This document shows, piece by piece, positions 35,861 through 54,720 of a DNA stretch of 64,000 nucleotides (its first letter is position 1; each line of letters begins with the position of its first letter). The stretch lies in NCBI RefSeq assembly GCF_009931435.1, contig NZ_CP043414.1; one strand, written 5' to 3'. Made by a program: the position numbers and the translations under genes. The notes below the pieces were generated by a model. The model did no database searches. It saw only the letters and a list, made by a program, of their open reading frames with translations, and was not told the origin of the DNA. The DNA comes from Escherichia coli. Lineage in GTDB: Bacteria; Pseudomonadota; Gammaproteobacteria; Enterobacterales; Enterobacteriaceae.

Positions 35861-35983
35861 AGAGTGTACGCTTAACGATTGTTAATATTATAAATAGACT
35901 GAATGAATATCTTAACCTTATCAGACTGATGGGCTTCTTAACACCCTTATAAGTGTAAAGCCACGAAAACGGTTGCTGATTGC

Positions 35984-37168: not shown

Positions 37169-37267
37169 TATTTTTGTTCATCAGGTGATGATTAAGCTGG
37201 AAATCAATAATAGCGGATGTTGATGAATATGGGATGAAAGATAGATTGTTGAAATGTGCGGTGTGGT

Positions 37268-37350
37268 TTGTAGGCATGATAAGACGCGGCCGCATCGCAT
37301 CAGGCATTGTGTACAGAGTGGCGGATGAGGCAAAAGCGCCTTATCCGCCC
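37268..37350. repeat. REP-like palindromic element between ygaY and proX
   Basis: gtaggcatgataagacgcggccgcatcgcatcaggc ... gcggatgaggcaaaagcgccttatccgc. Confidence 0.45.
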
Positions 37351-37359
37351 GAATAAAAA

Positions 37360-38352
37360 TTACTTCTGCGCTGCCAGCGCCTCATTCACCCAGCCATCGA
37401 ACTGCTGCTGGTGGGCTTTGATCCAGCCATCAACGTGTCCCTGAATATCGCCTTCTGAGGCTTTGCCGTCATGCATGATGGCGTTCTGGGCGTTAATGTC
37501 TGCCACCGGCAACTGCATAATGGCAAACAGTTTCGCTGCTGCCGGGTTTTTCTCGGCCCAGGCTTTGTTGGCAACGATATGCATGGTACTGACCGGGAAG
37601 CCGTAATTCGCGCCATTCGGCAGTTTGGTATCGGCATTTTTATCGCCCGGCAGTGCGGAGAACGGCACCTGCAACCAGACCACATCTTTCCCCGGTTTCA
37701 GTTCGTTACTCACCCAGTACGGCGTCCAGGTGTAGTAAAACACCGGCTTACCCTCTTTGTAACGACTGATGGTGTCAGCCATCATCGCTGCGTAGTTCCC
37801 CTGATTATGGGTTACGGTATTGGTCAGTCCATACGCGGCAAGCTGGTGGTTGATCGCACCTTCGCAGCCCCAGCCTGGGTTACAGCCGGTTAAATCCGCT
37901 TTACCGTCGCCGTTGGTATCGAACAGTTTGGCGATCTTCGGATCTTTCAGTTGCGCGATGTTGGTGATTTTGTACTGGTCGGCGGTTTTCTTATCGATCA
38001 GGTAACCCTGTGCCGCGCCGTTAACGAATACCCCTTCACGATAAAATTTCTTATCGCCACCGGCAGCTTCGTACATGTTGTCATGCAGCGGCGTCCAGTT
38101 CACGGCGGTGAAGGTTGCATCGCCGGAAGCAAGTGAGGTGTAGCCAACGTTGTAATCCACTTCGCTGGGTTTATTGACGGTATAACCTAATTTCTCCAGT
38201 GCACGACTGACCAGCAGCGTCTGGAAGGTTTCTTCAGTGATGGTGCTCTGAACTGGATTAACAGTAATACCTTTGCCCGGCAGATCGGCAGCAAAAGTTT
38301 GTGTAGAGATAAGCGTGGCAAACGCTGTCGCAAAAAGTACGCTATGTCGCAT
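37360..38352 (-). CDS. proX: Glycine betaine/proline ABC transporter periplasmic binding protein
   Basis: Track ORF to 38394; ATG at 38352 gives [31 protein letters not shown]... (signal peptide), 330 aa. Confidence 0.93.
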
Positions 38353-38409
38353 TGTTATTCCTTTTTTTGGCAGGGTGAAAATGCCCGGCGTCACCGGGCA
38401 AGTGCAGAG

Positions 38410-39474
38410 TTACTTAATGAATGGGCGGGTCAGCAGACCGACAGGGCCAGTGGTGTACCAGCGACGGTTGCCGCGACTGCGTGAGTCGCGCCCAACGGCC
38501 TGCGTCAGGCGGTCGAGGATAATGGCGAGGATCACAATCCCGACGCCGCCAACGGTGGCAAGCCCCATATCCAGACGACCGATACCGCGAAGTACCATCT
38601 GACCCAGCCCGCCGACGGCAATCATCGAGGCGATGACCACCATAGAAAGGGCCAGCATCAGCGTCTGGTTAACGCCCGCCATTATGGTCGGCATCGCCAG
38701 CGGTAACTGAACTTTGAACAGCATTTGACGCGGGCTGGCACCGAATGAGCGCGAGGCTTCAATTAAATCCGCCGGAACCTGATTAATACCAAGAATCGTC
38801 AGACGGATAATCGGCGGCAGAGCAAAGATTATAGTCACCACTACGCCCGGCACGTTGCCGATACCAAACAGCATGACGATTGGCACCAGATAAACAAACG
38901 CTGGCGTGGTCTGCATGGCATCAAGCAGTGGACGAATAATTTTCGCCGCTCGCGGACTTCTCGCCAGCCAGATCCCCAACGGCAAACCTATGACGATACA
39001 GAACAGCAGGGCGGTTAACACCAGCGCCAGGGTAACCATGGCCTGCGACCAGGCACCGATTGCGCCGATGGCAATCAGCGAAACCAGAGTCGCCACGCCC
39101 ATTCCGACCCCGGAAATCTGCCAGGCGATGAGAGCGAAAACGATAATCGCCACCGGCGCGGGCATACCCAGCAGCAATTGCTGGAAACCGTTGAGGATGT
39201 AATCAACCGGAACGCGCACGCCCTGAAAGACGGGACGAAAATGGGTAACGACCCAGTCGATCCCTTCAGTGACCCAACTGTCGAGCGGGATTAGCGTTTT
39301 ATGGAACGGATCGAGAATATTAAAATGCTCGACGTTTGGCGCAGGCGTACTGGTCAGCCAGTCAGCGCCACCGCCGTCAGTCGGTGCAGTCGCCGGTGTA
39401 CCCCAGGCGTCTGCAGATTGTGCAGCACTGTCCGCCGCTGGCGTGGTATCCCACGGATTATTTTGATCAGCCAT
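38410..39474 (-). CDS. proW: Glycine betaine/proline ABC transporter permease
   Basis: 354-aa ORF, 8-nt overlap with proV. Confidence 0.93.
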
Positions 39475-40669
39475 TATTTACCCCCTCACGATCTAAAGCG
39501 CGCAGCAGCATTCCTTTCGAAATGATGCCGACATACTGTTGGTCCTCGTCGACCACGGGCACCGCACAGGGCGCTTGTCCGACATGAGAGAGCAACTCGC
39601 TAAGAGGCGTTTGCGCATCGACTGCTAATGGCGCATCAATCAGCGCCGCATCAAGACCTTGCTGCTGCGTTAACGCGGTTTTAAGCGAATCGATAGACAC
39701 AGCGCCGACAAACTTATTACCGCGTTCGATAACGTAGCCATATTCGCGGTCTTCATCCTGCAATAATTTCAATGCCGAACGTGGGCCGAAGCCAGGGGTT
39801 TTACGAATTAAGCCATTCGGTGTCCGACGGGCAATATCTTTCGCACTGAATACCTGACTAATATCAACGCCACGGAAGAAGGTACGGACATAATCATTCG
39901 CCGGATTATTGAGAATTTCATCCGGTGTGCCAACCTGCACCACTTCACCATTTTGCATAATGGCAATTCGGTCGCCAATACGCATCGCTTCGTCGAGATC
40001 GTGAGAAATAAAGACAATGGTACGTTGATGTTTCGCCTGTAATTTTACCAGCTCATCCTGCATCTCAGTGCGAATTAATGGATCAAGCGCCGAGAAGGCT
40101 TCGTCCATTAATAATATATCCGGATTAATTGCTAATGCGCGGGCTAATCCGACGCGTTGACGCATCCCACCAGAGAGTTCGTCCGGGTAGCTATGGGCAT
40201 AATTTTCCAGCCCGACCTGACGCAGTGCATCAAGGGCTTTTTCCCGGCGTTCTTCGGCATTAATTCCGGCCAATTCCATACCGAATGCAGTATTGTCCAG
40301 CACGGTCATATGCGGCATTAAGGCAAAGGACTGGAAGACCATCGCAATCTTTTTTCTGCGCACCTCACGGAGTTCGGCGTCGGATATTTTGGCAATATCC
40401 ACACCATCAATCAGCACTTGCCCGCGGGTGGGTTCAATCAGGCGATTGAGAAGGCGTACCATTGTGGATTTACCCGAACCGGATAATCCCATGATGACAA
40501 ATATCTCGCCTTCTTCAATGGCCAGACTGGCGTCTTTTACGCCAAGCGATAGCCCGGTTTTTTCCAGAATTTGTTCTTTTGAAAGTCCTTGTTCGATATA
40601 TTTGAACGCTCGCTGAGGATGCTCGCCAAATATTTTATAGAGATTTTTAATTTCTAATTTAATTGCCAT
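39467..40669 (-). CDS. proV: Glycine betaine/proline ABC transporter ATPase (with C-terminal CBS domains)
   Basis: 400-aa ORF with Walker [10 protein letters not shown] and ABC signature LSGGMRQR. Confidence 0.95.
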
Positions 40670-41023
40670 GCAATAGAAAGATTCCTGTTATTTGTTTATG
40701 TCGATACATTACCCAATGGAAATAGTCACTTTTTTCTACCCTAACATACTGAGAATCTGAGGCAACCCCTGATGGCAAATGTGGCATGAATATTGATGCG
40801 AGCAAATCGCCGGAATTTCCCATGATATAAGGGCTGAGAGCAAATCGAGAAAGTTGATATTTTTTGTCATAGATAGCGAAAAAACGCCTGAATATTGTGG
40901 TTTCAGGCGAATAATGCAACAGAGTATCAGTGTAGATCACCACAAAATATTTGCGTGATAAAAAGCTATTTGGCAGGAATTATTTCCCTACTGTGGTTGG
41001 TGATATTTTTGAAAATAACACAC

Positions 41024-41992
<969 letters not shown>

Positions 41993-44137
41993 TTAAAGTG
42001 CACAGGAGACGCAGCCTTCAATTTCAGTGCCTTCCAGCGCCATCTGACGCAGGCGGATGTAGTAGAGCGTTTTGATACCTTTGCGCCAGGCGTAAATCTG
42101 CGCTTTGTTGATATCGCGAGTGGTGGCGGTATCGGGGAAAAACAGTGTCAGCGACAGCCCCTGATCGACATGGCGAGTCGCTTCGGCGTAGGTGTCGATG
42201 ATCTTTTCTGCGCCGATTTCGTAAGCGTCCTGATACAGCGCCAGATTCTCGTTAGTCATAAATGGGGCAGGGTAGTAAACGCGTCCTGTTTTGCCTTCTT
42301 TGCGTATCTCTACTTTCGCCACAATCGGATGAATACTCGACGTGGCATGGTTGATATAAGAGATGGAGCCGGTTGGCGGCACTGCCTGGAGATTCTGGTT
42401 GTAAATGCCATAGCGCATCACGTCGTCGCGCAGTTGCGCCCACATTTCGCGGGTAGGTAACGTGATGCTGCTACGAGCAAACAACTCGCCAACTTTCGCC
42501 GTTTTCGGTTGCCAGTTACCTTGCAGATATTGGCTAAAATATTCACCGCTGGCATAGCGTGACTGTTTGAACCCGGCGAAGGTTTCACCGCGTTCGCGCG
42601 CCAGCAACATTGAGGTACGCAGCGCGTGCCAGGTGATGGTGTAGAAATAGAGATTGGTGAAATCCAGTGCTTCCGGCGAACCATAGGCGATGCCTTCTCG
42701 CGCCAGATAACCGTGTAAATTCATCTGCCCCAGACCGATAGCGTGTGAGGCGGCATTTCCGGCTTCGATGGACGGCACGCTGCGAATATGACTCATATCT
42801 GACACCGCAGTTAAACCGCGTACGGCGATCTCTACCGTGCGGGCAAAATCGGGGGAATCCATGGTGTGGGCAATATTCAACGAACCTAAATTGCAGGAAA
42901 TATCATGGCCTGTGCGGGCATAGTCGAGATTCTCGTCATACTCTGAGGCGCTGTTAACCTGCAAAATTTCTGAGCAGAGATTGCTCATATTTATACGCCC
43001 GGCAATAGGGTTAGCACGGTTAACCGTGTCTTCATACATGATGTAGGGATAGCCGGACTCAAACTGGATCTCCGCCAGTCGCTGGAAGAAATCACGGGCG
43101 TTGATGTATTTTTTGCGGATTCGCTCATCGGCAACCAGTTCGTCATAGTGTTCACTGATGGCGATATCGGCAAACGGCTTGCCATAAACACGCTCAACGT
43201 CATAGGGCGAAAACAGTGCCATCTGCGCATTCTCTTTTGCCAGATGGAAGGTGATATCCGGGATAACCACGCCCAGCGACAGTGTTTTAATGCGGATTTT
43301 CTCGTCGGCATTTTCCCGCTTTGTATCGAGAAAACGCAGTATATCGGGATGATGGGCATGTAAATAGACTGCGCCAGCACCCTGACGCGCGCCGAGCTGG
43401 TTGGCATAGGAAAATGCGTCTTCCAGCATTTTCATCACCGGAATCACGCCAGAAGATTGATTTTCAATACGTTTAATTGGCGCGCCCGCTTCCCGCAGAT
43501 TCGACAGCAAAAATGCCACGCCGCCGCCGCGTTTCGACAGTTGTAGTGCGGAATTTACCGCCCGGCCAATCGACTCCATATTGTCTTCAATACGCAGCAA
43601 AAAACAGGAAACCAGTTCGCCGCGCTGCTGCTTACCACAGTTGAGGAATGTCGGTGTTGCAGGCTGAAAGCGTCCTGACAGCATCTCATCGGTCAGTTGC
43701 GTCGCCAGTGTTTTATCGCCTTGTGCCAGCGTCAGCGCCACCATCGTGACTCGATCGGCAAAATCTTCCAGATAACGCTTACCGTCGAATGTCTTCAACG
43801 TATAGCTGGTGTAAAACTTCCATGCTCCGAGGAATGTCTGAAAACGAAAACCGCTGGCGTGTGCGTGGGCAAATAGCGTAATGACAAATTCGCGAGAGTA
43901 ACGGTTGAGGACGCTTTCATCATAGTAACCCTCGTTGACCAGCCAGTTCAGGCGCTGCTGTTGGCTGCTGAAGGTCACGCTATTCGGGCGTACATGCGTC
44001 GCCAAAAATGCATCTACTGCCTGGCGGTCTTTATCGAACTGAATGCGACCCGCGTTATCGTAAATATTAAGCATCGCATTCAGAGCGTGGTAATCCATCG
44101 TTTCCTGCGTCAGGCGTTCTGCGGTTGTCGTTGCCAA
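41993..44137 (-). CDS. nrdE: Class Ib ribonucleotide reductase alpha subunit
   Basis: 714-aa ORF ending ...EGCVSCAL. Confidence 0.95.
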
Positions 44138-44520
44138 AATTCGGTTACTCCTTTACGAACGTTTTCGATATCGCTTTGCGTACCCATGAGTTCAAAGCGG
44201 TACAGCCACGGCACGCCGCATTTCCGGGCAATCACATCTCCGGCGCGGCCATACGCCTCACCAAAGTTGCGATTACCCGAAGCAATAACGCCGCGAAGCA
44301 ACGCCCGGTTGTGCTCGTCGTTTAAAAAGCGAATGACCTGCCGTGGCACCGCGCCAGCCGTACCGCCGCCGCCGTAAGAGGGCACGATCAGGATGTAAGG
44401 CTCGTCTACCTGAATCCGTTCCCGCTCATTGAGCGGGATGCGCACCGCGGGCAGTCCTAAACGTTCGATAAAACGCTGCGTATTTTCGGAGCTGCTGGAA
44501 AAGTAGACGAGTTGGCTCAT
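44110..44520 (-). CDS. nrdI: Flavodoxin-like NrdI (class Ib RNR activation)
   Basis: 136-aa [24 protein letters not shown]... Confidence 0.93.
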
Positions 44521-44762
44521 GCACTGGCCGCGTGTGGCGCTGGATGCAGACGATTGATCATGTCCGGGCGGAAACCAGACCAGCTAAGATCTCCTGCAAT
44601 CACTACCGGCAACTGACGAAAGCCCTGAGCACGTAACGCTTCCGCCGCTTCAGGAACGCGATCGACATTAATCATTTCAAAATCAAAGCCCCGGTTTTCC
44701 ATCGCCCGTTTGGTGGCGTGGCACTGAACGCAATCGTTACGAGTGTAAATAGTAATGCGCAT
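44517..44762 (-). CDS. nrdH: Glutaredoxin-like protein NrdH
   Basis: 81-aa ORF with CVQC redox motif. Confidence 0.93.
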
Positions 44763-44970
44763 GATTCGTATTTCCGTTTAAAATGAAGATACGGCGCGAT
44801 GATACGCGTCGGGTTGTCTCTCTGTTGATACAGAGATACTAGATGTAGTTGAAAAAAGATTCAACCATACAAGATATGGGAATTTTAGATTGATTACACC
44901 ACCGATGAATGGCTCAACGGGGTAGGGGATTTTGTGTTTTTTTGCCGGGCGATTGCCCGGCATCAGGAAG

Positions 44971-45402
44971 TTACATCCGCATGGAAACGGCCAGGCGGTT
45001 AAAGCAATTCATCAGCCCGATGGCAAATGTTAAGTCGCTGATTTCTGCTGCGCTGAAATGCTCAAGCAAAGGCTGATAAACGTCGTCTTCCGCATGGGTT
45101 CGGGCAATATCGGTCACCGATTCCGCCCATGCCAGCGCCGCCCGCTCGCGATCGTCAAAATGATGGCTTACGCGCCAGCCTGCCAGGGCATCCAGCTTAT
45201 GCTGCGGCACACCGGATTTGCGTAATGCTTTGCTGTGCATCTCCAGACAAAATGCGCAACCATTGATTTGCGAGACGCGCAAATAAACTAACTCCATCAG
45301 CGTAGTTTCCAGCGTGCTATTTTCCAGCGCCGTTTTGGCCTGCACCAGCGCGTTATATACCGTTGGGCTAAGTTCGTAGTAAGGCTGACGTAATGTAGTC
45401 AT
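44971..45402 (-). CDS. AhpD-like / carboxymuconolactone decarboxylase family protein
   Basis: 143-aa ORF with CxxCxxxH signature (NGCAFCLEMH); strong AGGAG SD; divergent from a MocR-type regulator. I do not recall a gene here in K-12. Confidence 0.7.
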   Translation of the reverse strand: MTTLRQPYYELSPTVYNALVQAKTALENSTLETTLMELVYLRVSQINGCAFCLEMHSKALRKSGVPQHKLDALAGWRVSHHFDDRERAALAWAESVTDIARTHAEDDVYQPLLEHFSAAEISDLTFAIGLMNCFNRLAVSMRM

Positions 45403-45489
45403 ACAGTTTCTCCTCTTATTAACGCCCGCAATGTAGCACTATAATGGACTGCTAAAGAGAGCCATAAATTACCTAAAAAAGCAGACCAT

Positions 45490-46824
45490 ATGCCGCGCTA
45501 TCAGGATATCGCCCGTCAGTTAAAAACGGCTATTGAGCAAGGGGAACTGAAACCCGGCGCAAGGCTACCTTCAAGTCGTACCTGGTCGCAGGAACTGGGG
45601 GTGTCTCGATCCACTGTCGAAAATGCGTATGCTGAGCTGGTGGCGCAAGGATGGCTGATCAGGCGGGGACAGGCTGGCACATTTGTCAGTGAGCAGATAT
45701 ATCCGCAACAATCTACTGTACAAGTTGTGTCTTTTGCCGGTGAAAGTCAGCAACCGTTGCCATTTCAAATGGGATTACCCGCACTCGATCTCTTTCCGCG
45801 AGAGCTGTGGGCGCGGGTGATGGGGCGTCGCCTTCGTACCCAGACGCGCTTTGATTTGGCGTTAGGCGATGTCTGCGGTGAGGCGGCGTTGCGTGAGGCA
45901 ATAGTTGATTACTTACGCGTTTCACGTGGGATTGATTGTCAGCCAGAGCAGGTCTTTATCACTCACGGTTATGCGGCCTCAATGGCTTTAATTCTGCACG
46001 CGCTGGCGAAACCGGGAAACGGGATGTGGATGGAAGATCCCGGCTTTCCACTGATTCGCCCGATTGTCACTCGCCACGGTGTGGAAATTTTGCCTGTGCC
46101 GGTTGATGACAACGGACTGGATATCACAAGCGGAATACAAAATTATCCTGATGCGTGTTTTGCCCTGATAACACCAGCACACCAAAGCCCGCTGGGTGTG
46201 GCGCTCTCTTTAGCGCGCAGGCATCAGATACTGGAATGGGCAGAGCGTAGTCAGGCATGGATTATTGAAGATGATTATGACAGTGAGTTTCGCTATCACG
46301 GTAAGCCGTTACCGGCGTTAAAAAGTCTCGATGCACCGCAGCGGGTAATTTATGCCGGAACATTCAGCAAAGCACTATTTCCTGCATTGCGCTGTGCGTG
46401 GCTGGTGGTGCCGGTGAAGCAAATTGCACAATTCCGCCACCAGGCGTCACTGGCTCCATGTGCGGTACCTGTTCTATGGCAGAACACACTGGCAGACTTT
46501 CTTCGCGAGGGGCATTTCTGGCGGCATCTGAAGAAAATGCGTCAGCATTATGCTCAACGTCGGCAATGGATTGAGCAAGCGTTGACGCAGCAGGGATTTC
46601 AGGTTGTGCCGCAGAAAGGTGGTATCCAGATGGTGATCAGAATGATGGGCGATGATATTGCCCATGCGCGTAAAGCCAATGCTGCAGGCCTTGCGGTGCA
46701 GGCACTTAGCGACTGGCGTATCCGCTCAAGTGGGGAAGGTGGATTACTTCTCTCGTTTACCAATATCGTTAACGAAGGTATGGCGCGACAGGTAGCACAA
46801 CAATTACGTAAAGCCTTAAGCTAA
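45490..46824 (+). CDS. MocR/GabR-type regulator (GntR wHTH fused to PLP-dependent aminotransferase-like domain)
   Basis: 444-aa ORF; N-terminal GntR HTH (YQDIARQLKTAIEQGELKPGARLPSSRTWSQELGVSRSTVENAYAELVAQGWL), C-terminal class-I aminotransferase-like region with candidate PLP lysine (FSKALFP). Confidence 0.75.
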   Translation: MPRYQDIARQLKTAIEQGELKPGARLPSSRTWSQELGVSRSTVENAYAELVAQGWLIRRGQAGTFVSEQIYPQQSTVQVVSFAGESQQPLPFQMGLPALDLFPRELWARVMGRRLRTQTRFDLALGDVCGEAALREAIVDYLRVSRGIDCQPEQVFITHGYAASMALILHALAKPGNGMWMEDPGFPLIRPIVTRHGVEILPVPVDDNGLDITSGIQNYPDACFALITPAHQSPLGVALSLARRHQILEWAERSQAWIIEDDYDSEFRYHGKPLPALKSLDAPQRVIYAGTFSKALFPALRCAWLVVPVKQIAQFRHQASLAPCAVPVLWQNTLADFLREGHFWRHLKKMRQHYAQRRQWIEQALTQQGFQVVPQKGGIQMVIRMMGDDIAHARKANAAGLAVQALSDWRIRSSGEGGLLLSFTNIVNEGMARQVAQQLRKALS

Positions 46825-46879
46825 AAAACCCCGAAATCAGGTTCCGGGGTCAAGACGCGTATTTATTATCATTGTTGCA

Positions 46880-47209
46880 CTACGATTTGCGCATGCTTAA
46901 CAGTGCGCCGATAAAAATACCAACCGCAGCTGCTGTACCCACGCTACACCAGGGTCTTTCACGAACAAAAGAATCCGCGCAGCCAACGGCATCGCGCGCG
47001 GCTTGCTGAACGCGAGTACGACCATGCATTCGCGCTCTGGTTTCTTTCAGTAGAGCCTGCGCTTTACTACGAGCGGCTTCGGCTTCCCCTTTGGCGTCGC
47101 TGCCCCAGGACTTCAATACAGATTCGAGGCTGTCAGCTAATTGATTGACATCATTCTGGATATCCTGCACGCCATCATCAACGTCGTTGCGGTTCGGTCG
47201 GTTAAACAT
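46880..47209 (-). CDS. ygaM: ElaB/YqjD/DUF883 family ribosome-associated membrane-anchored protein
   Basis: Track ORF to 47221; ATG at 47209 gives MFNRPNRNDVDDGVQDIQNDVNQLADSLE..., 109 aa, C-terminal TM. Confidence 0.85.
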   Translation of the reverse strand: MFNRPNRNDVDDGVQDIQNDVNQLADSLESVLKSWGSDAKGEAEAARSKAQALLKETRARMHGRTRVQQAARDAVGCADSFVRERPWCSVGTAAAVGIFIGALLSMRKS

Positions 47210-47360
47210 ATGATCCCCCATTAGAATTCGATGTAATTTTCAGTGTAGACCATAATTTTCTTAACTGAGGTTCATCGCGGCTTTATGGACTTTTCTGAAA
47301 GCGTTGTGAATGCGCAATCAGGTAAGGTAGGCCCGCGGTTGATAATAACGAGGATCAAAT

Positions 47361-47705
47361 ATGTATTTACGACCAGACGAGGTGGCGCGCGTACTTGAAA
47401 AAGTCGGTTTTACTGTCGATGTGGTAACTCAGAAAGCGTATGGTTACCGCCGTGGGGAAAATTATGTCTATGTTAATCGCGAAGCGCGAATGGGACGTAC
47501 CGCTCTGGTAATTCATCCAACATTAAAAGAACGCAGTTCAACACTGGCTGAACCCGCTTCCGATATTAAAACGTGCGACCATTACCAGCAATTTCCGCTC
47601 TATTTAGCGGGTGAACGTCATGAGCATTACGGTATCCCACATGGCTTTAGTTCGCGTGTTGCGCTTGAACGTTATTTGAATGGTTTATTTGGCGAAGCCA
47701 GTTAA
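47361..47705 (+). CDS. ygaC: DUF2002 family protein
   Basis: 114-aa [25 protein letters not shown]...; synteny. Confidence 0.85.
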
Positions 47706-47741
47706 AGACGCGACTGGCGATGCCAGTCGCGAAAAGAAGGG

Positions 47742-48191
47742 TCAGGCTTTTACCTGCTGGTAACGGCTGACTTTAAACAGTCGGCGGCAATAATCGAGGA
47801 AGTAGCCATAAACCGCCCCCATCAACATCGAAACAACGATGTTTGAACTGACCGCAGCCATAATCTGATGCCAGTCTGCGCCCACCACTAACAAGATCGC
47901 CACATACACCGGTGACTGGAACGTCACATACGCCAGGATATCCGCCAGATTTTTTACCCAGCCCGACGGACTAACTTTGCGTGCCGCGCGCATAAACAGA
48001 TCGCGGTACATACCGTATGGCCATGCAATTAAGATGTTCACCGGAATCGCTACCAATCTGGAATAAAGAGACTGTTCGAAGCTCATTCCGGAGAGGAAAA
48101 CTTCAATACACATGTTCACGACAGAACAGTAAACAACCATCGCGAACGTATCTGCAACTGCATGACGCAAGCGTGACTGCGGTGAGAACAT
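47742..48191 (-). CDS. alaE: L-alanine exporter
   Basis: 149-aa membrane ORF adjacent to stpA. Confidence 0.88.
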
Positions 48192-48857
48192 GCTAATGCT
48201 CCTTAATAAAAGCGTAATGGGACGTTAATAGAGATGAAAGCAGTGGATCTCATTGCCATCTGCATTTTCGCATAGCGTATATCGCTGGCTATGACTAATC
48301 AATTAGTGAAAAATTTTTATTTAATCTGTTTTTGTAGATAAAATATTCCGTAGCGGCGCGTTTTTTGTACATTGTGGATTTTTACATGCTGATATGATTT
48401 ATTTTTAATTAAATCAATTAGATATGGGCGTATCTTTATTTTCACTAATGAAAGTTTGGGGGTGAGGTAACGCTATAAGCGTAGAGAATTCGGTGTATGC
48501 AGTGACTGGGTCATTTTCAGCATTTTTTATGCCAGACAATGTACATTAACAGCAGAAAGCACCAGTGAGTGATGTTTATTTTTATTCGTATATATTGCAT
48601 TTTTATTCGATTTGGTTTTATCAGGCTTGCGGAATTAGCGAGCAGAGAGCGCCGCTCTGTTCACCAATAACCGAAATTACTCATCAAATTGGCTAATATA
48701 TAATCTTGAAATTATTCTGAGAGTTTCAGAAAATAACAGCTGAAATAATCTCGTGCAGGACTGTAAATAGATTAAATTTTGTGGAAATATAATAAGTGAT
48801 CGCTTACACTACGCGACGAAATACTTTTTGTTTTGGCGTTAAAAGGTTTCCTTTATT

Positions 48858-49262
48858 ATGTCCGTAATGTTACAAAGTCTAAATAACATTCGCACTCTCC
48901 GTGCGATGGCTCGCGAATTCTCCATTGACGTTCTTGAAGAAATGCTCGAAAAATTCAGGGTTGTCACTAAAGAAAGACGTGAAGAAGAAGAACAGCAGCA
49001 GCGTGAACTGGCAGAGCGCCAGGAAAAAATTAGTACCTGGCTGGAGCTGATGAAAGCTGACGGAATTAACCCGGAAGAGTTATTGGGTAATAGCTCTGCT
49101 GCCGCACCACGCGCTGGTAAAAAACGCCAGCCGCGTCCGGCAAAATATAAATTCACCGATGTTAACGGTGAAACTAAAACCTGGACCGGTCAGGGCCGTA
49201 CACCGAAGCCAATCGCTCAGGCGCTGGCAGAAGGTAAATCTCTCGACGATTTCCTGATCTAA
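48858..49262 (+). CDS. stpA: H-NS paralogue, DNA-binding/RNA chaperone
   Basis: 134-aa [39 protein letters not shown]... with C-terminal TWTGQGRTP motif. Confidence 0.95.
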
Positions 49263-49308
49263 TTACTGAGGCCGGATGTCGCTGCTATGGCGCGTCCGGC
49301 GTCGCTTC

Positions 49309-49833
49309 TCAAGCTTGTTGGTTCCACGGCATCTTATCTAACAACCTTGCCATCCCACAAAAACCGCTAATTCCTGCAAACAGTAACCCGGCACCAACAA
49401 AGCCGCTTAATAAGAAGAAACCGCTATTTACGGTATAACCCAGTACAACACCGATTAATATTAAACCACCCGCGGCGATCTGCACCTGGCGCATTAACGG
49501 CAAGGGTTGAGATTTATTTACCGCTACTGGCAATCCTGCTTTTTTCCAGCCATCAATCCCATCTTCGAGTAAAAAGATTTCTGCGGGTGCGGCAATCGCT
49601 GCTAATTTATCGGCGTTATTACTGGTGCGTTTACCTGCCTGGCAGTGGAAGATAATTTGCTCACGACGTAATTTAGCCGGAAGACCTGACTGTTCGAGCA
49701 CAGATAATGGAGCCAGATCTGCTTCAGGAATATGTTCACGAAGATATTCATCAGCATCACGAATATCGATTAACTTTGCGCCGCGTGCGATTAATTCTTG
49801 TGCATCATGCGGCGAAATGGTTGTCAAAGCCAT
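49309..49833 (-). CDS. ygaP: Rhodanese-domain inner membrane thiosulfate sulfurtransferase
   Basis: 174-aa ORF with rhodanese active-site Cys ([10 protein letters not shown]) and C-terminal TM helices. Confidence 0.88.
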
Positions 49834-49842
49834 AGTGACTCC

Positions 49843-50142
49843 TTACGGACAATAGACATTTTTCAGGGTGGCGATAATGGCATTTACCGCCTCATTTTTA
49901 ATGGAATATAGAATGCGTTGGGCATCCCGTTGGCTGTCGATAAGCCCTTCGTCTCGCATACGCGCGAGATGCTGTGATGTCGCAGAGGCACTCAATCCGG
50001 TAATGCGCGTCAGCTCTCCCGCGCTGGTACCGGGGGAACCGCTAAGCATGCACAGAATCAGCAACCGTTTGGGGTGGCTCATTGCTTTCAATAAGGCTGC
50101 TGCCTGTTCGGCACTGGCCTGTAATTGCGCGAGTTCAGTCAT
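49843..50142 (-). CDS. ygaV: ArsR/SmtB-family transcriptional repressor
   Basis: 99-aa ORF with wHTH; upstream of and co-oriented with ygaP. Confidence 0.88.
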   Translation of the reverse strand: MTELAQLQASAEQAAALLKAMSHPKRLLILCMLSGSPGTSAGELTRITGLSASATSQHLARMRDEGLIDSQRDAQRILYSIKNEAVNAIIATLKNVYCP

Positions 50143-50324
50143 AGTTATTTAAGTATTTTCTAAATTAAGTAAACTCTAAACTAAAAATACAACATATGCC
50201 AGCATCAGCAGCGTAAATGAGAGTAAAAGCGTAAGCTGAAACTGGCAGGCTCCGCTAAAATTACTACGCTTAAGAGATAAAATCTCTTTTTAAACAATGA
50301 GTAATTTTCTTATAGGGAGTACAT

Positions 50325-50483
50325 ATGGGTTTCTGGAGAATCGTCATCACCATCATTCTGCCGCCGCTCGGCGTGCTGCTCGGTAAAGGGTTCGGTTGGG
50401 CGTTCATTATTAATATTCTGCTGACACTGCTTGGGTATATCCCCGGTTTGATTCACGCGTTCTGGGTGCAAACCCGCGATTAA
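50325..50483 (+). CDS. yqaE: Pmp3/UPF0057 family small membrane protein (52 aa)
   Basis: Not in the ORF track (under 60 aa). ATG at 50325 to TAA at 50481-50483 translates to MGFWRIVITIILPPLGVLLGKGFGWAFIINILLTLLGYIPGLIHAFWVQTRD; GGGAG SD upstream. Confidence 0.8.
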   Translation: MGFWRIVITIILPPLGVLLGKGFGWAFIINILLTLLGYIPGLIHAFWVQTRD

Positions 50484-50566
50484 ACCTGTCCTCACCCCCG
50501 CGGCGTTAACGCGCCGCGTTCCTCTGCTACACTTTCTGAGTGTTTCCGTTAACGAATGAGGTAGCT

Positions 50567-51016
50567 ATGGGTCTGTTCAATTTTGTGAAAGATGCTGGAG
50601 AAAAACTCTGGGACGCGGTTACAGGTCAGCACGATAAAGACGATCAGGCGAAGAAGGTGCAGGAGCATTTGAACAAAACCGGTATACCTGATGCCGATAA
50701 AGTGAATATTCAAATTGCCGACGGCAAAGCGACGGTCACTGGTGACGGCTTAAGTCAGGAGGCGAAGGAGAAAATCCTTGTTGCGGTGGGGAATATTTCC
50801 GGTATTGCCAGTGTCGATGATCAGGTGAAAACGGCGACACCAGCCACTGCCAGCCAGTTTTATACCGTTAAGTCTGGCGACACTCTGAGTGCCATTTCCA
50901 AACAGGTCTACGGTAATGCCAATCTGTACAATAAAATCTTCGAAGCGAATAAACCGATGCTAAAAAGCCCGGATAAAATTTACCCGGGGCAAGTGTTGCG
51001 TATTCCTGAAGAGTAG
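50567..51016 (+). CDS. kbp: K+-binding protein with BON and LysM domains
   Basis: Track ORF from 50540; ATG at 50567 gives [18 protein letters not shown]..., 149 aa; C-terminal LysM ([31 protein letters not shown]). Confidence 0.88.
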
Positions 51017-51679
51017 TTAATTGCCAGCCATTGCTTGCTGGATAATGGGAATTGGCGTCAGTAAATGCTGGCGCATTAACTCACTGGCGCGCGCGGTATC
51101 TCGCGCCAGTACCGCCGCAGTCAGGGTCTGGTGCTGATCGCGTTTATCCTCCAGCATTTCCACCGAAAGCACTGTTCGCCGCAGCCAGATAAATCGATAG
51201 CGCGCCGCCAGATCAAACAACCGTTCACGCATTTGCAGCAAATAGTGAGAACCACAGCCCGCCACAATTGCCGTATGAAACGCCTGATGACGCAGATCCC
51301 ACTCATCAAGCATTTTCTCACTGGCGTCACAGGCCTCCAGCTTACTCAGCAGATGCGCTTTTGCGAGAACGTCTGCCTCCCATTCATCGCCACCGCGGGC
51401 AATCGCCAGACTGACCAGCATCGCTTCCATATTGGCGCGGGCGTCGAAAATATCGAGCAGCTCCTGCTCTGACATAGACGCCACCCGATACCCTTTTTGA
51501 TTCACCACCGTGACCAGTCGTTCTGCTACCAGTTGCGAAAGCGCTTCCCGCAACGGCCCAACGCCAAGTGCATAACGCGATGTCAGCAAACTCATCCGTA
51601 ATTTTTCATCCGGTTGAAAATTACCGCGAATAATATCGTTCTTCAGCCAGCGATAGCCATCCAGAGACGTAATGGTCAT
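51017..51679 (-). CDS. csiR: GntR/FadR-family repressor of csiD-gab operon
   Basis: Track ORF to 51697; ATG at 51679 gives MTITSLDGYRWLKNDIIRGNF..., 220 aa. Confidence 0.88.
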   Translation of the reverse strand: MTITSLDGYRWLKNDIIRGNFQPDEKLRMSLLTSRYALGVGPLREALSQLVAERLVTVVNQKGYRVASMSEQELLDIFDARANMEAMLVSLAIARGGDEWEADVLAKAHLLSKLEACDASEKMLDEWDLRHQAFHTAIVAGCGSHYLLQMRERLFDLAARYRFIWLRRTVLSVEMLEDKRDQHQTLTAAVLARDTARASELMRQHLLTPIPIIQQAMAGN

Positions 51680-51699
51680 GGTGTGACTCCTGATCATTA

Positions 51700-53100
51700 T
51701 TAGCGCGTATTATGAACGGGTGTTTTTTGCCACAATACCAGTTTTTTCCAGCGCGCCATAATCGGCACGGTACAGATTATCCCTATCGCTAATAAACCGG
51801 TGGAGATCACTTCTAACTGTTGCGCCGGGCGGAATAGCATCACTACCAACACAAAGGTAATAAAGCCGATTACCAGCCAGGTGAGCCACGGGTAAAGCCA
51901 CATTCGCAGGCGAATTTCGCTTCCTTCTGCTCGCAGGATTTTGCGCATTCGTAATTGCGAAACGGCGATGACTAAATAAACCAGCAGGGCGATAGCGCCG
52001 GAGCTGTCGATCAGAAATTTAAACACTTTCGCCGGTGCGTAATAGTTAACCACCACCGTTAAAAACGCCGCGCCGGTGGAGAGTAACACCGCCACGTACG
52101 GGGTTTTACTGCGGTTAATTTTGCCCATTACCGCGGGTGCATCACCGCGACGGCTTAAGGAGTAGAGCATCCTTGACGCGGTATACAGCGCCGAGTTCAG
52201 GCAACTGGTTACGGAAAGTAATATCACGCAGTCCATGATTAATTTCGCATGAGGAATATTGAGCAATTCCAGAACCGAGCGATAAGATCCAACGGCTTTC
52301 AGTCCCGGCATATTCCACGGTATTAATGCCACGACGACAAAAATAGAGCACAAATAGAAGATAGAAATACGCCAGATAACCGAGTTGGTGGCGCGGACAA
52401 TATGTTTTCCCGGCGTGTCGGATTCCGCGGCGGCAATGGTGACAATTTCTGCGCCCATAAACGAGAACATGGTGATCAACATCGCGCTTAATACCGCACC
52501 GAAGCCATTGGGCATAAAGCCGCCGCTATCCCACAATCTTGAGATCCCGCTCACTTCGGCATACGGGTAAAAACCGCTAATTGCGACTGCACCAAGGAAT
52601 ATAAATGCCAGAATGGCAATGACTTTGCACAGCGCCAGCCAGAACTCAAATTCGCCGTAGTTTTTAACGCTTAATAAATTACTGCCAGTTAAGGCGAGGG
52701 TAATGACGAGGGAAAACAACCAGATAGGAATGCCTGGAACCCACGAGTGCAGGATCATGGCGGCGATATTGGCTTCCAGCGGGATAACCAGTACCCAAAA
52801 CCACCAGTACAGCCAGCCGATGGTATAACCCGCCCAACGACCAATAGCTTTATCGGCATAGGTGGAAAACGAACCCGTGTCGGGCGTGGCAACCGCCATT
52901 TCCGCCAGCATTCGCATAATCATAACCACCAGTAATCCGGCGAACAGATAGGCCAGTAATACCGCTGGACCCGCTTCGGCGATGGCGACGCTGGAACCGA
53001 CAAACAGACTTGCGCCGATAACACCGGCAATAGACAACATGGTGACGTGGCGTGACTTCAGCCCGCCGCCTAACTCATGTGGTTGCGATGATTGCCCCAT
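51700..53100 (-). CDS. gabP: GABA permease (APC family)
   Basis: Track ORF to 53163; ATG at 53100 gives MGQSSQPHELGGGLKSRHVTMLSIAGVIG..., 466 aa. Confidence 0.92.
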   Translation of the reverse strand: MGQSSQPHELGGGLKSRHVTMLSIAGVIGASLFVGSSVAIAEAGPAVLLAYLFAGLLVVMIMRMLAEMAVATPDTGSFSTYADKAIGRWAGYTIGWLYWWFWVLVIPLEANIAAMILHSWVPGIPIWLFSLVITLALTGSNLLSVKNYGEFEFWLALCKVIAILAFIFLGAVAISGFYPYAEVSGISRLWDSGGFMPNGFGAVLSAMLITMFSFMGAEIVTIAAAESDTPGKHIVRATNSVIWRISIFYLCSIFVVVALIPWNMPGLKAVGSYRSVLELLNIPHAKLIMDCVILLSVTSCLNSALYTASRMLYSLSRRGDAPAVMGKINRSKTPYVAVLLSTGAAFLTVVVNYYAPAKVFKFLIDSSGAIALLVYLVIAVSQLRMRKILRAEGSEIRLRMWLYPWLTWLVIGFITFVLVVMLFRPAQQLEVISTGLLAIGIICTVPIMARWKKLVLWQKTPVHNTR

Positions 53101-53194
53101 CCTGAATCCTCTCGAAAGTGTGTCACTTGGGAGAGCGCCCCGACATTTCCCGCGTCGGGTCACGCGTGTAATTGTTATTGGTTCTTTTTGCCGG

Positions 53195-53420
53195 AGAGCG
53201 GCTCCGCCTTATCCGGCCGACATAGATTTATTCCTGTTCACGTACAGATTGTCGGATGCGGCGTAAACGCCTTATCCGACTTGGATTCTCGTAGGCCGGA
53301 CAAGACGCGAAGCGTCGCCTCCGGCATGGTGCGCCGAATGTCGGATGCGGCGTAAACGCCTTATCCGACCTACATTTCCGTAGGCCGGACAAGACGCAAA
53401 GCGTCGCCTCCGGCATGGGT
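53195..53420. repeat. Cluster of REP/BIME elements including two tandem ~80-bp units
   Basis: gtcggatgcggcgtaaacgccttatccgac...gtaggccggacaagacgc(g/a)aagcgtcgcctccggcatgg occurs twice (about 53251-53328 and 53340-53417), preceded by a third partial copy. Confidence 0.6.
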
Positions 53421-53426
53421 GCGGTG

Positions 53427-54707
53427 CTACTGCTTCGCCTCATCAAAACACTGGCTGATGATCTCCAGACCCTGACGGATCTGAGCATCTTCAATAGTGA
53501 GCGGGACAAGGATGCGCAGCACGTTGTAATACGGGCCGCAGGAGAGAAGAATCAGGCCTTTATCGCGGGCGCGCGCCACGATGTCGGCGGTGAGTTTGGC
53601 GTCCGGTTTACTGTGATCGCCACCTTCAAACAGCTCGATAGCAATCATCGCCCCCAGCCCGCGAACGTCGCCTACCTCAGTGTGTTTTTCGGCGATCGCC
53701 AGCAATCCGTCTTTCAGCTTTTGCCCCAGATCGTTGGCTTTTTGCAGCAGATTTTCCTGTTCAAACACCTTCAACACTTCCAGCGCCGCGACGCAGGCAA
53801 TCGGGTTACCCGCATAAGTGCCGCCTAAGCCGCCCGGAGCGACAGCGTCCATCACTTCGGCGCGCCCGGTGACGCCCGCCAGCGGGAAACCGCCTGCGAT
53901 CGATTTCGCAAAGGTGGTGAGATCAGGTGCCACGCCCATTTGTTCCATCGCAAACAGCGTGCCGGTACGCCCCGCGCCGCTTTGCACTTCATCGGCAATC
54001 AACATGATCCCGTGCTCGTCACACAGCGCACGTAAACGCTGCATAAAGGCTGGCGTCGCGGCGTAGAAACCGCCTTCGCCCTGAACCGGCTCAATCACGA
54101 TGGCGGCGATATCTTCCGGCGCCGCGTCATTTTTAAAAATTCGGTGAATACTTGCGATAGCGTCATCTTCACTGATCCCGTGGAGCGGGCAAGGATAAAG
54201 CGCGCGATAAACATGGCCCGGCATCAGGCCCATCCCAGCAGAGTACGGATTCACCTTGCCAGTCAGCGCCAGCGTATAGTGCGTGCGCCCGTGATACGCG
54301 CCGCTAAAGGCGATGGTGCCGCTACGTTTGGTGGCGGCGCGGGCGATTTTCACCGCGTTTTCCACCGCTTCGGAACCAGTCGTCACCAGCAGCGTTTTTT
54401 TGGCAAAATCGCCTGGCACCTTCTGATTCATAATCTCGCACAGCTCCAGATACGGCTCGTAGGCCAGCACCTGGAAGCAGGTGTGCGACAGTTTTTTCAA
54501 CTGCGCTTCCACCGCCGCAACCACTTTCGGATGCAGGTGCCCGGTATTGAGCACCGCAATCCCGCCCGCGAAATCAAGATACTCACGGCCTTCAACGTCC
54601 CACACCCGGCAGTTTTCCGCGCGGTCAGCGAAAATCGGGTGAATTTGCCCAACGCCACGGGGAATCGCCTGACTGCGGCGTTGCATTAACTCTTTATTGC
54701 TGCTCAT
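53427..54707 (-). CDS. gabT: 4-aminobutyrate aminotransferase (PLP-dependent)
   Basis: 426-aa ORF MSSNKELMQRRSQAIPRGVG... Confidence 0.95.
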   Translation of the reverse strand: MSSNKELMQRRSQAIPRGVGQIHPIFADRAENCRVWDVEGREYLDFAGGIAVLNTGHLHPKVVAAVEAQLKKLSHTCFQVLAYEPYLELCEIMNQKVPGDFAKKTLLVTTGSEAVENAVKIARAATKRSGTIAFSGAYHGRTHYTLALTGKVNPYSAGMGLMPGHVYRALYPCPLHGISEDDAIASIHRIFKNDAAPEDIAAIVIEPVQGEGGFYAATPAFMQRLRALCDEHGIMLIADEVQSGAGRTGTLFAMEQMGVAPDLTTFAKSIAGGFPLAGVTGRAEVMDAVAPGGLGGTYAGNPIACVAALEVLKVFEQENLLQKANDLGQKLKDGLLAIAEKHTEVGDVRGLGAMIAIELFEGGDHSKPDAKLTADIVARARDKGLILLSCGPYYNVLRILVPLTIEDAQIRQGLEIISQCFDEAKQ

Positions 54708-54720
54708 TCGCGTTCTCCAG

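Follow-up and report, generated by a model that had tools for sequence, protein, structure and literature searches.

The locus described here lies within a 64,000-nt stretch of the Escherichia coli contig NZ_CP043414.1 (assembly GCF_009931435.1), hereafter referred to as the window, and comprises two divergent genes between nrdH and ygaM (Table 1). The gene order is nrdH, a carboxymuconolactone decarboxylase (CMD)/AhpD-like gene on the minus strand, a MocR-family regulator gene on the plus strand, and ygaM; the two central genes share a spacer of 87 bp (45403–45489), and neither pca genes nor pdxST are found as neighbors. A preliminary description of this DNA had reported a 143-aa open reading frame with a CxxCxxxH motif and a strong Shine-Dalgarno sequence, a divergent 444-aa regulator with a GntR-type HTH and an aminotransferase fold, and a shared 87-bp spacer containing TATAAT, and all of these elements are present, the motif reading C49-A-F-C52-L-E-M-H56. 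By contrast, of the two AATGTAG direct repeats that had been placed in the spacer, only one is inside it, and the other falls within the CMD coding sequence. The CMD gene is co-directional with nrdH and is located 208 bp upstream of it. The hairpin directly past the CMD stop codon, the stem of which is kept in E. albertii and O157, is followed on the CMD strand by A7 and has no U-tract; it was not called in the terminator scan and is not a canonical intrinsic terminator. Furthermore, no Rfam family match was obtained within 40000–50000, and no tRNA was found by the tRNA scan in 35000–55000.

Table 1. Features of the nrdH–ygaM locus, with positions in the window.
Feature	Position	Strand	Basis or remark
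Segment absent from K-12-type E. coli, ~1.88 kb	44937..46817		BLAST and direct comparison with MC4100; 7 bp (ATTCACC) there instead
Hairpin GCCGGGC-N4-GCCCGGC	44944..44961	-	Directly past CMD stop codon; read from sequence
CMD/AhpD-like gene, 143 aa	44971..45402	-	Open reading frame, Pfam PF02627, TIGR00778
AATGTAG copy 1	45392..45398	+	Within CMD codons 2–4; not conserved
Shine-Dalgarno AGGAG of CMD gene	45410..45414	-	7 nt from ATG; CTCCT block conserved (20-sequence alignment)
AATGTAG copy 2	45430..45436	+	Spacer, between -35 and -10 of putative MocR promoter; only 3′ part (TAGCAC) conserved
-10 hexamer TATAAT (TATGAT in some genera)	45440..45445	+	Conserved; putative MocR promoter
Predicted operator box 1, ATGGACTGC	45444..45452	+	A, T, G, G, C, T invariant in 20-sequence alignment
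Predicted operator box 2, GAGAGCCAT	45457..45465	+	GCCAT invariant in 20-sequence alignment
Conserved A-tract	45475..45480	+	Nearly invariant A columns; between boxes 2 and 3
Predicted operator box 3, GCAGACCAT	45481..45489	+	A, G, C, A, T invariant; abuts MocR start codon
MocR-family regulator, 444 aa	45490..46824	+	Pfam domains, PDB matches
ygaM intrinsic terminator	46827..46851	-	Terminator scan; starts 3 bp past MocR stop codon; retained in K-12

The regulator has the features of the MocR/GabR subfamily: an N-terminal GntR wHTH (residues 4–66; PF00392, E 1.4e-17), a linker, a C-terminal fold-type-I aminotransferase-like domain with a Schiff-base lysine (Aminotran_1_2, PF00155, E 4e-26), and a multi-box site beside a divergent gene. 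The PLP lysine K294 (codon 46369–46371) aligns with K312 of GabR and R301 with GabR R319, and the IIEDDYDSEF segment is identical in the structural-homologue alignment (GabR); the dN/dS of the regulator gene is 0.08–0.10. The earlier identification of a MocR-type factor divergent from an AhpD-like CxxC gene is thereby borne out, and the pairing is kept well beyond E. coli. The structural matches are B. clausii PdxR (7pq9, E 3e-63) and B. subtilis GabR (4n0b, E 6e-57). The effector-binding residues Arg207 and Arg430 of GabR are not kept, the former being replaced by Leu and the latter by Asp in E. coli or Arg in Salmonella, and the effector class is therefore not readable from sequence; effector prediction from pocket residues was dropped, since the Arg430 equivalent differs even between these two genera.

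In some E. coli genomes, PGAP names this regulator PdxR, which would make it a PLP sensor controlling vitamin B6 homeostasis and the CMD protein a B6-related one. The regulator does score 409 bits against the NCBIfam equivalog NF052282 (PdxR; cut-off 320), its best PDB match is B. clausii PdxR, with which it shares Leu at the position of GabR Arg207, and the predicted operator layout matches that of PdxR. However, five of five diverse MocR proteins with different neighbors also pass NF052282 (403–428 bits), so that the match is not specific, and one of the five scores higher on the rhizopine MocR model. Moreover, the divergent gene is CMD/AhpD-like and not pdxST; E. coli makes PLP via the PdxA/PdxJ route and, to our knowledge, has no pdxST. 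Suvorova and Rodionov placed the orthologues in a group of their own, Spro_3719, which is functionally unassigned and separate from the PdxR, PdxW, and PdxQ groups (PMC5320631). A genuine PdxR at this locus is thus improbable, and the name pdxR is over-propagated in the current RefSeq annotation of E. coli.

The CMD protein matches the Pfam CMD family PF02627 (E 2.4e-20) and the AhpD core domain TIGR00778 (52.5 bits; cut-off 27.8), and PA0269 (PDB 2ijc/2o4d/7xw1) matches it over its full length (E 1e-31); by its sequence, it belongs in the PA0269 group (COG2128). The relay residues are E37, C49, F51, C52, and H56. Among 33 relatives, the core SQ(I/L)N(G)C(A/T)(F/Y)C..(M/..)H is conserved with both cysteines and the histidine invariant, and the dN/dS of the gene is 0.03–0.08. 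The proton-relay position is occupied by Phe51 here and by Phe in most orthologues, whereas M. tuberculosis AhpD has His and PA0269 has Tyr there, and a true peroxidase role is therefore doubtful. Two narrower assignments were rejected. An AhpD sensu stricto, i.e., an AhpC-reducing adaptor, is contradicted by a TIGR00777 score of 30.2 bits (cut-off 191.95); E. coli reduces AhpC with AhpF. A PcaC γ-carboxymuconolactone decarboxylase was discarded in view of no NCBIfam match at E ≤ 0.001 and no pca/β-ketoadipate context. The protein most likely serves in the defence against peroxides, electrophiles, or quinones, as a thiol-dependent oxidoreductase.

The preliminary description further held that nrdH is directly followed by ygaM in K-12, and that the pair had accordingly been inserted and was accessory. 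The first point holds in strain MC4100, in which the two genes are 247 bp apart and the pair is absent; the polarity of the event, by contrast, has to be reversed. The order ygaM–MocR–CMD–nrdHIEF is also found in Salmonella, Klebsiella aerogenes, Citrobacter, E. albertii, Cedecea, Pluralibacter, and Rahnella, and the same position and orientation recur in Pseudocitrobacter and Pseudescherichia, the synteny of the pair covering 15 or more genera. At the Salmonella locus, at the same ygaM–nrdH site, the regulator is 75% and the CMD protein 85% identical to those of E. coli. A horizontally acquired islet, present in some E. coli strains, could be suggested by the patchy distribution of the pair, which only 1387 of 5426 complete E. 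coli genomes have in whole or in part, by its absence from K-12, and by a within-species dS that is three to four times higher for the pair (0.27–0.40) than for the flanks (0.09–0.14). However, divergence in the pair correlates with divergence in its flanks (Spearman 0.78–0.89), its G+C content is 52% as compared with 51% in the window, and neither an integrase or other mobility gene, a tRNA, nor a direct-repeat boundary was found near the pair, nor any plasmid copy among complete E. coli genomes. In addition, pair-less strains have one common junction with a 7-bp filler: that of MC4100 is identical in three further pair-less strains, and a fourth pair-less record (P276M, L088) is degraded and too error-ridden for base-by-base comparison of the junction. 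Horizontal acquisition of an islet is therefore scarcely credible; the claim of an accessory pair stands insofar as the pair is variable within E. coli, and fails as to its being an acquired element.

The pair is thus an old, vertically inherited enterobacterial module that is ancestral at the nrdH–ygaM junction, and a single 1.88-kb deletion probably accounts for its loss from the haplotype found in K-12 and in some three quarters of the E. coli strains sequenced. Where it is retained, the pair is under purifying selection (dN/dS 0.03–0.10). Furthermore, in about 111 genomes, a 587-bp deletion removes the DNA-binding domain of the regulator and leaves the operator and target intact; NZ_CP031215 and NZ_CP028761 are two examples. 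In Salmonella, an STM2804::cat insertion was employed as a neutral marker for competition experiments in mice (PMC3723669). The module is dispensable, as indicated by its loss in about 75% of E. coli, the regulator deletion in about 111 genomes, and the neutrality of this marker.

The spacer carries a predicted operator. In an alignment of 20 sequences from about a dozen genera, the cross-genus footprint is a 46-bp three-box site (45444–45489) composed of ATGGACTGC, GAGAGCCAT, the A-tract, and GCAGACCAT, and overlapping the conserved TATAAT. Boxes 1 and 3 form an outer inverted repeat (8 of 9 positions), and box 2 repeats box 3 in direct orientation, the 24-bp spacing being unchanged from E. 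coli to Rahnella and Pseudomonas. The A-tract between them is probably an intrinsic-bend element. A search with the composite motif gave a single occurrence in the window and zero in 100 shuffles; 33 of 87 loci each contain one copy, which in every case directly precedes and abuts the start of the MocR gene. The three-box layout recurs in Salmonella and K. aerogenes and in Pseudomonas, Burkholderia, Hafnia, and Budvicia, and the (T)AGGNCATG overlap with the MocR start codon is shared by the loci of the latter four genera. A repeat search with a 6-nt exact seed missed the box 1/box 3 inverted repeat because of the single mismatch in its middle. The AATGTAG/CGYAATGTAG direct repeats were rejected as an operator: copy 1 is part of the CMD coding sequence and is not kept even in E. 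albertii or Citrobacter, and given its lack of conservation outside E. coli, the repeat is probably due to chance.

A scan of the spacer for the strict sigma-70 consensus called neither promoter because both -35 hexamers are weak, and the promoter positions were therefore taken from the conserved TATAAT alone. In the 20 aligned sequences, the columns ACTAT and ATGG show little or no variation, and the reverse complement of this region (ACTATA to TATAGT) is a candidate -10 for the CMD promoter. Its -35 would then be TATGGC, which has one of six matches and lies at the position occupied by box 2. MocR repressors exist, and a plain repressor of the CMD gene resembling EnuR or PtsJ, sitting on the core promoter and released by an effector, would fit the placement of boxes 1 and 2 over the spacer and -35 of the putative CMD promoter, with the shared -10 region adjoining box 1. 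Against this, the CMD promoter is essentially devoid of a -35 element, which is typical of activator-dependent promoters, and GabR, which together with PdxR is the nearest relative that has been characterized, activates its divergent gene from an equivalent position. PdxR likewise activates its divergent gene from such a position (PMC10450172). Plain repression is consequently possible, although rather doubtful.

We consider it likely that the pair is a native two-gene module of Enterobacteriaceae in which a MocR factor controls a divergent AhpD-like CMD target through the predicted operator. In this module, a regulator dimer would bind the 46-bp site, in which boxes 2 and 3 point the same way and box 1 the opposite way, with the A-tract in addition. 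So bound, it would cover the -10/+1 region and leader of its own promoter and, in the -35-less CMD promoter, the spacer, the -35 position, and the sequence farther upstream. In analogy to GabR and PdxR, the regulator would repress its own gene constitutively, and an effector-dependent switch of the box pair occupied by the two wHTH domains would turn the CMD gene on; the effector would be expected to react with or at the PLP site. The CMD protein would then act on peroxide, electrophile, or quinone stress as a thiol-dependent oxidoreductase.

The position next to the class Ib ribonucleotide reductase operon had been taken as suggestive of a redox function. A redox role for the CMD protein is plausible, in line with the weak H2O2 reduction by PA0269 and with AzoR-like, Bcp, and DsbD-like genes in sister regulons, but the adjacency to nrdHIEF seems to reflect an inherited gene order and not a link in function. 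A direct tie to this operon, with the CMD protein as a redox partner of NrdH or with read-through from the MocR-controlled promoter into nrdHIEF, would accord with the co-directional placement of the CMD gene 208 bp upstream of nrdH, the hairpin without a U-tract past the CMD stop codon, the adjacency kept across Enterobacteriaceae and Rahnella, and the difference in distal nrdH upstream sequence between pair-carrying and pair-less haplotypes. However, related MocR–CMD pairs in Pseudomonas, Pectobacterium, Hafnia, Budvicia, and betaproteobacteria have no nearby nrdH or nrdI (none within 6 kb in the first four), K-12 expresses nrdHIEF in the absence of the pair, and vertical descent alone predicts that adjacency is kept within one family; such a tie is very improbable.

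The contents of related operons bear on the CMD protein itself. The divergent operon comprises GNAT, AzoR-like, and CMD genes in Pseudomonas, GNAT and CMD genes in Pectobacterium, and AzoR-like and CMD genes in Azoarcus, Mixta, and Microbulbifer, and related members in the published catalogue regulate AcpD, Bcp, and COG4232 genes (PMC5320631). The AzoR-like, Bcp, DsbD-like, and GNAT genes in the regulons of other taxa point to thiol/redox defence. A more far-reaching reading, which we regard as unlikely, is that the regulator is a PLP-chemistry sensor of an amine-/carbonyl-reactive or redox-active stress compound (e.g., an aromatic amine, hydroxylamine, or quinone-imine type product) that switches on a thiol-oxidoreductase defence set, and that the enterobacterial promoter might read through into nrdHIEF. 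The set could consist of the AhpD-like protein alone in E. coli, joined elsewhere by an AzoR-like flavoprotein, GNAT, Bcp, and a DsbD-like protein. If this reading were true, the ancient presence/absence polymorphism of E. coli would change the stress response and class Ib ribonucleotide reductase control.

Orthologues of the pair were already catalogued by comparative genomics in 2016, when the regulators of group Spro_3719 were given a COG2128/PF02627 gene as predicted single target (Suvorova and Rodionov, 2016; PMC5320631). The regulog "Spro_3719 - Enterobacteriales" includes STM2803 (Salmonella LT2), CKO_04020, a member from Klebsiella pneumoniae MGH 78578, Ent638_0497, ECA2654, and Spro_3719 (PMC5320631); the regulator described here, with its divergent COG2128 target, can be assigned to the same orthologous group. 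The tag order, together with the location of STM2804 ~5 kb from stpA (PMC3723669), suggests that the listed STM2803 represents the Salmonella ygaM–nrdH locus. The preliminary description had allowed that the pair might turn out to be present in K-12 under a known name; K-12 has no such pair, but STM2803/STM2804 of Salmonella were already on record as a predicted regulon. A search of the literature library used here yielded no paper joining MocR with AhpD or carboxymuconolactone decarboxylase, no experimental work on the pair from any organism, and nothing for STM2803, ECs3534/3535/3536, or Z3973. Separately, Z3974, which may be a gene of this pair, is listed as a protein retained on a salicylidene-acylhydrazide resin.

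The present analysis corrects a likely misreading, in that the absence of the pair from K-12 is a K-12 loss and not a sign of an island gained by other strains, and it gives exact coordinates for the conserved three-box predicted operator of a MocR group. It also identifies material for testing: K-12, as a clean null host, and the approximately 111 sequenced strains in which the DNA-binding domain of the regulator has been lost by natural deletion. As compared with the regulog of Suvorova and Rodionov (2016), which is purely computational and without a functional name, the E. coli copy is an addition: K-12, which lacks the pair, was their E. coli genome. In the same catalogue, PA0269 is listed as a COG2128 target of the MocR regulator PA0268 (PMC5320631), which forms a sister orthologous group of the E. 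coli regulator and not the same group. Among proteins of known structure, PA0269 of P. aeruginosa (2IJC, 2O4D, 7XW1) is the nearest homologue of the CMD protein, and it showed weak cysteine-dependent H2O2 reduction in the FOX assay (Clarke et al., 2011; PMC3141380); the two proteins share the E...CxxC...H center, and Tyr50 of PA0269 corresponds to Phe51 of the E. coli protein. AhpD of M. tuberculosis likewise shares the CMD fold family and a CxxC center with a Glu/His relay (PMC3141380), whereas its catalytic helices are at the opposite end of the chain and its relay residue His132 is replaced by Phe in the CMD protein.

A MocR regulator with a divergent target is biology of a well-known kind. 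GabR of B. subtilis (PDB 4N0B), a MocR-family protein, has the PLP lysine and phosphate-binding arginine in common with the regulator described here; it autorepresses and, in an effector-dependent manner, activates the divergent gabTD from a site overlapping both promoters. GabR binds two direct ATACCA repeats, in contrast with the three-box site predicted here. The commonest type of MocR motif is "two direct plus one inverted" (PMC5320631). The layout is matched by the experimentally dissected operator of B. clausii PdxR (PDB 7PQ9), the best structural homologue and also divergent from its target, in which two direct motifs and one inverted motif lie within ~48 bp, with an A/T-tract bend, and overlap both promoters (Freda et al., 2023; PMC10450172). 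The holo form of PdxR binds the outer inverted pair, and the A/T-tract bend is needed for binding (PMC10450172). The two systems differ in the gene that is controlled: the target of B. clausii PdxR is pdxST, with PLP as an anti-activator (PMC10450172), whereas the target here is an AhpD-like gene.

The window is a stretch of E. coli chromosome with the order nrdF-nrdE-nrdI-nrdH (- strand), a 143-aa ORF (-), a 444-aa ORF (+), ygaM (-), ygaC, alaE, stpA, ygaP, and ygaV. The two ORFs form a divergent pair, named by RefSeq as a "carboxymuconolactone decarboxylase family protein" (CMD) and a "PLP-dependent aminotransferase family protein", the latter a MocR regulator. The feature is genuine, and the preliminary description of it is for the most part correct: the CxxCxxxH motif of the CMD ORF reads C49-A-F-C52-L-E-M-H56, the AGGAG Shine-Dalgarno sequence, the 87-bp shared spacer, and TATAAT (45440-45445) are all present, and nrdH and ygaM are indeed adjacent in K-12, separated by 247 bp in strain MC4100.

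Features of the CMD-MocR locus and its flanks (window coordinates; A1, spacer alignment of 20 loci)
Feature	Position	Strand	Remarks
Second GC-rich hairpin, nrdH leader	44792-44811		T-rich run follows on - strand, UAUCUUCAUUUU
Hairpin 3' of CMD stop codon	44944-44961		followed by A7, no U-tract, on CMD strand
CMD/AhpD-like ORF, 143 aa	44971-45402	-	Pfam CMD PF02627, E 2.4e-20; AhpD core TIGR00778 above cut-off
Shine-Dalgarno AGGAG of CMD ORF	45410-45414		
Promoter element TAGCACTATAATGG			holds -10 hexamer TATAAT or TATGAT; invariant columns in A1
Box 1, ATGGACTGC	45444-45452		invariant columns in A1
Box 2, GAGAGCCAT	45457-45465		invariant columns in A1
A-tract	45475-45480		conserved in A1
Box 3, GCAGACCAT	45481-45489		ends at regulator start codon; invariant columns in A1
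MocR regulator ORF, 444 aa	45490-46824	+	GntR PF00392 and Aminotran_1_2 PF00155 domains
587-bp internal deletion	45493-46079		about 111/5426 genomes

The pair had been taken for an insertion, a view overturned by synteny across genera, matching G+C content, and a common deletion junction. With the regulator as query against one genome per species, the order nrdI-nrdH-CMD-MocR-ygaM-ygaC was found in E. albertii, Pseudocitrobacter, Pseudescherichia, Cedecea, Pluralibacter, several Enterobacter-like genera, and Rahnella; three Citrobacter species share this order but gave no ygaM match. In Salmonella enterica and Klebsiella aerogenes, look-ups of CMD orthologues returned the identical order, which runs on into nrdEF-proV. 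The pair and the flanking NrdI and YgaC lose identity in parallel (Spearman 0.78-0.89), the segment has a G+C content of 52.2% (window, 50.7%), no tRNA was found near the pair, and each of the 1387 E. coli matches is a single chromosomal copy, with none on plasmids. Furthermore, the pair-less junction, GATTTTTGTG-ATTCACC-AGGCAAAAAG, is identical in K-12 and three further fetched E. coli strains. The pair is therefore ancestral at the nrdH-ygaM site, and approximately 1.88 kb (roughly 44937-46817) was lost once, in the haplotype borne by K-12. A fourth fetched pair-less record, strain P276M (NZ_CP044293.1), lacks the pair and is frameshift-ridden, precluding base-by-base comparison with the junction; in this "complete" genome, nrdI, nrdH, and ygaM each carry a broken-pseudogene annotation and small indels are numerous, damage that seems to stem from uncorrected long-read errors and not from biology.

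Among 5426 complete E. coli genomes, 1387 carry some part of the pair and 1276 at least 80% of it. The 587-bp deletion (carriers include NZ_CP031215, NZ_CP028761, NZ_CM132924, NZ_CP116035, and NZ_CP141093) removes the wHTH, the linker, and the first part of the sensor domain of the regulator but leaves the operator and CMD intact; these strains are natural regulator nulls and, together with K-12, provide easy test material. Where kept, both genes are, judging from dN/dS values of 0.03-0.10 versus O157, E. albertii, Citrobacter, and Salmonella, under purifying selection. The segment 44971-46824 was compared with the fetched loci L003 (O157:H7) and L021; between the window and O157, dS is 0.27 for CMD and 0.40 for MocR, and the adjoining nrdI, nrdH, and ygaC have 0.09-0.14. 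The dS of the pair within E. coli is thus three- to four-fold that of its flanks and nears the E. coli-E. albertii level. This high dS, together with three allele classes among the 1387 genomes (at least 99% identity, n = 14; 95-99%, n = 1008; 90-95%, n = 365), suggests old haplotypes or recombination at the locus.

A functional tie of the pair to nrdHIEF is very improbable. The hairpin behind the CMD gene lacks a U-tract, which makes read-through into the nrdH promoter region possible, but related MocR-CMD pairs elsewhere lack nrd adjacency, and the retention of this adjacency in Enterobacteriaceae and Rahnella is expected under vertical descent. The hairpin in the nrdH leader could be an attenuator or terminator directly upstream of nrdH. 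In the distal nrdH upstream region (44878-44925, roughly 50 bp), ~40% of positions differ between pair-carrying and K-12-type strains; the window type appears ancestral because it matches Salmonella, Citrobacter, and E. albertii. Since this segment overlaps what we take to be the distal NrdR box of nrdHIEF (CCATACAAGATATGG in the window, CCACACAATATATAG in K-12), nrdHIEF regulation may not be the same in the two haplotypes.

Alignment of the spacer from 20 loci in about a dozen genera (A1) leaves three blocks and a promoter element as invariant columns. Boxes 1 and 3 form an inverted repeat (8/9 positions), box 2 recurs directly as box 3 with a fixed 24-bp spacing, and in Salmonella and K. aerogenes the spacer holds all three. 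Written as a regular expression, the composite site gave a single match across the 64 kb of the window and was absent from 100/100 shuffles; 33 of 87 fetched loci, including Pseudomonas, Burkholderia, Herminiimonas, Hafnia, Budvicia, and Sphingomonas, hold exactly one match, always directly upstream of the MocR gene, and looser versions were seen by eye in additional loci. This site is the conserved element, and the two AATGTAG repeats flagged earlier as lying in the spacer are not: one copy does lie in the spacer (45430-45436), with conservation limited to its TAGCAC part, whereas the other (45392-45398) falls within CMD codons 2-4 and is replaced by TAACATCG, TAATTCGA, and so on in relatives. 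A consensus promoter scan of the spacer called neither a regulator nor a CMD promoter.

The nearest solved structure to the CMD protein is P. aeruginosa PA0269 (2IJC, 2O4D, 7XW1; E 1e-31, full length), which has the relay E36, C48, Y50, C51, and H55 and shows weak H2O2 reduction blocked by N-ethylmaleimide (PMC3141380). The corresponding E. coli positions are E37, C49, F51, C52, and H56, with Phe in place of Tyr; 33 relatives show no variation at either cysteine or at the histidine, and position 51 is mostly Phe. The CMD protein is therefore a predicted CxxC thiol oxidoreductase of AhpD-like fold; AhpD proper is ruled out (TIGR00777, 30 bits versus a cut-off of 192). In the regulator, K294 and R301 align with the Schiff-base K312 and phosphate-binding R319 of GabR, and IIEDDYDSEF is identical; PLP binding is therefore likely. 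By contrast, the GABA-binding Arg207 and Arg430 of GabR are not kept (Leu stands at the first position, and the second holds Asp in E. coli and Arg in Salmonella), and the effector is not readable from the sequence. In newer records of some genomes (matches H2, H34, H35, H38, and others), PGAP assigns [quoted passage not shown]. The window regulator scores 409 bits against the PdxR equivalog NF052282 (cut-off 320); this name is unjustified because the cut-off is also passed by 5/5 other MocR proteins tried, whose neighbours differ (403-428 bits), and the divergent gene is not pdxST. The name is probably over-propagated in RefSeq.

As to regulation, the plus-strand TATAAT would place the regulator mRNA start near 45452, with box 1 over -10/+1 and boxes 2 and 3 in the leader, an autorepression geometry. 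On the minus strand, TATAGT in the same AT-rich block would be the sole plausible CMD -10; box 1 would then fill the promoter spacer, box 2 would occupy the -35 position (TATGGC, 1/6 matches), and box 3 would lie further upstream, as in an activator-dependent promoter. GabR at gabR-gabT has a matching geometry. The B. clausii PdxR operator fits two direct motifs and one inverted motif, together with an A/T-tract bend, into 48 bp; every motif is bound by the apo form, holo-PdxR favours the outer inverted pair, and this switch shuts off activation (PMC10450172). MocR motifs in general are most often of the "two direct plus one inverted" type (PMC5320631). Owing to the promoter geometry, these parallels, and the motif type, we favour, at about even confidence, predicted autorepression with an effector-dependent box-pair switch that would activate CMD; the main alternative, a plain repressor, is less likely.

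Related regulators face operons of GNAT, flavodoxin-like AzoR/AcpD, and CMD genes in Pseudomonas (L023, L026, L028), GNAT and CMD in Pectobacterium (L025), and AzoR-like and CMD genes in Azoarcus, Mixta, and Microbulbifer. In loci L040, L076, and L080, too, related MocR regulators face this trio (GNAT acetyltransferase, AzoR-like flavoprotein, and CMD) or subsets of it. The trio recurs in the 2016 regulon tables of Suvorova and Rodionov (PFL_2191, Cpin_3547; PMC5320631). The orthologous group of this regulator is there "Spro_3719", whose enterobacterial members (STM2803 of Salmonella LT2, CKO_04020, a Klebsiella pneumoniae MGH 78578 member, Ent638_0497, ECA2654, and Spro_3719) have a COG2128 gene as predicted target; within this group, predicted targets are COG2128, AcpD, and GNAT for PFL_2191 and AcpD, Bcp, and COG4232 for the Hahella and Shewanella members, and those of the sister group PA0268 are PA0269-type genes (PMC5320631). 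These operons and predictions support a thiol/redox-defence theme. Very little experimental information was found: a neutral cat insertion used in mouse competitions was placed in STM2804, selected as a gene "with no known function" (PMC3723669), and O157 "z3974", which by tag order (Sakai ygaM = ECs3533) may be the CMD protein, was among 16 proteins retained, with Tpx and WrbA, on a salicylidene-acylhydrazide resin (PMC3191033). The MocR-COG2128 pairing is already catalogued, in silico only and without assigned function, and the module is of a known kind, within an already published regulog.
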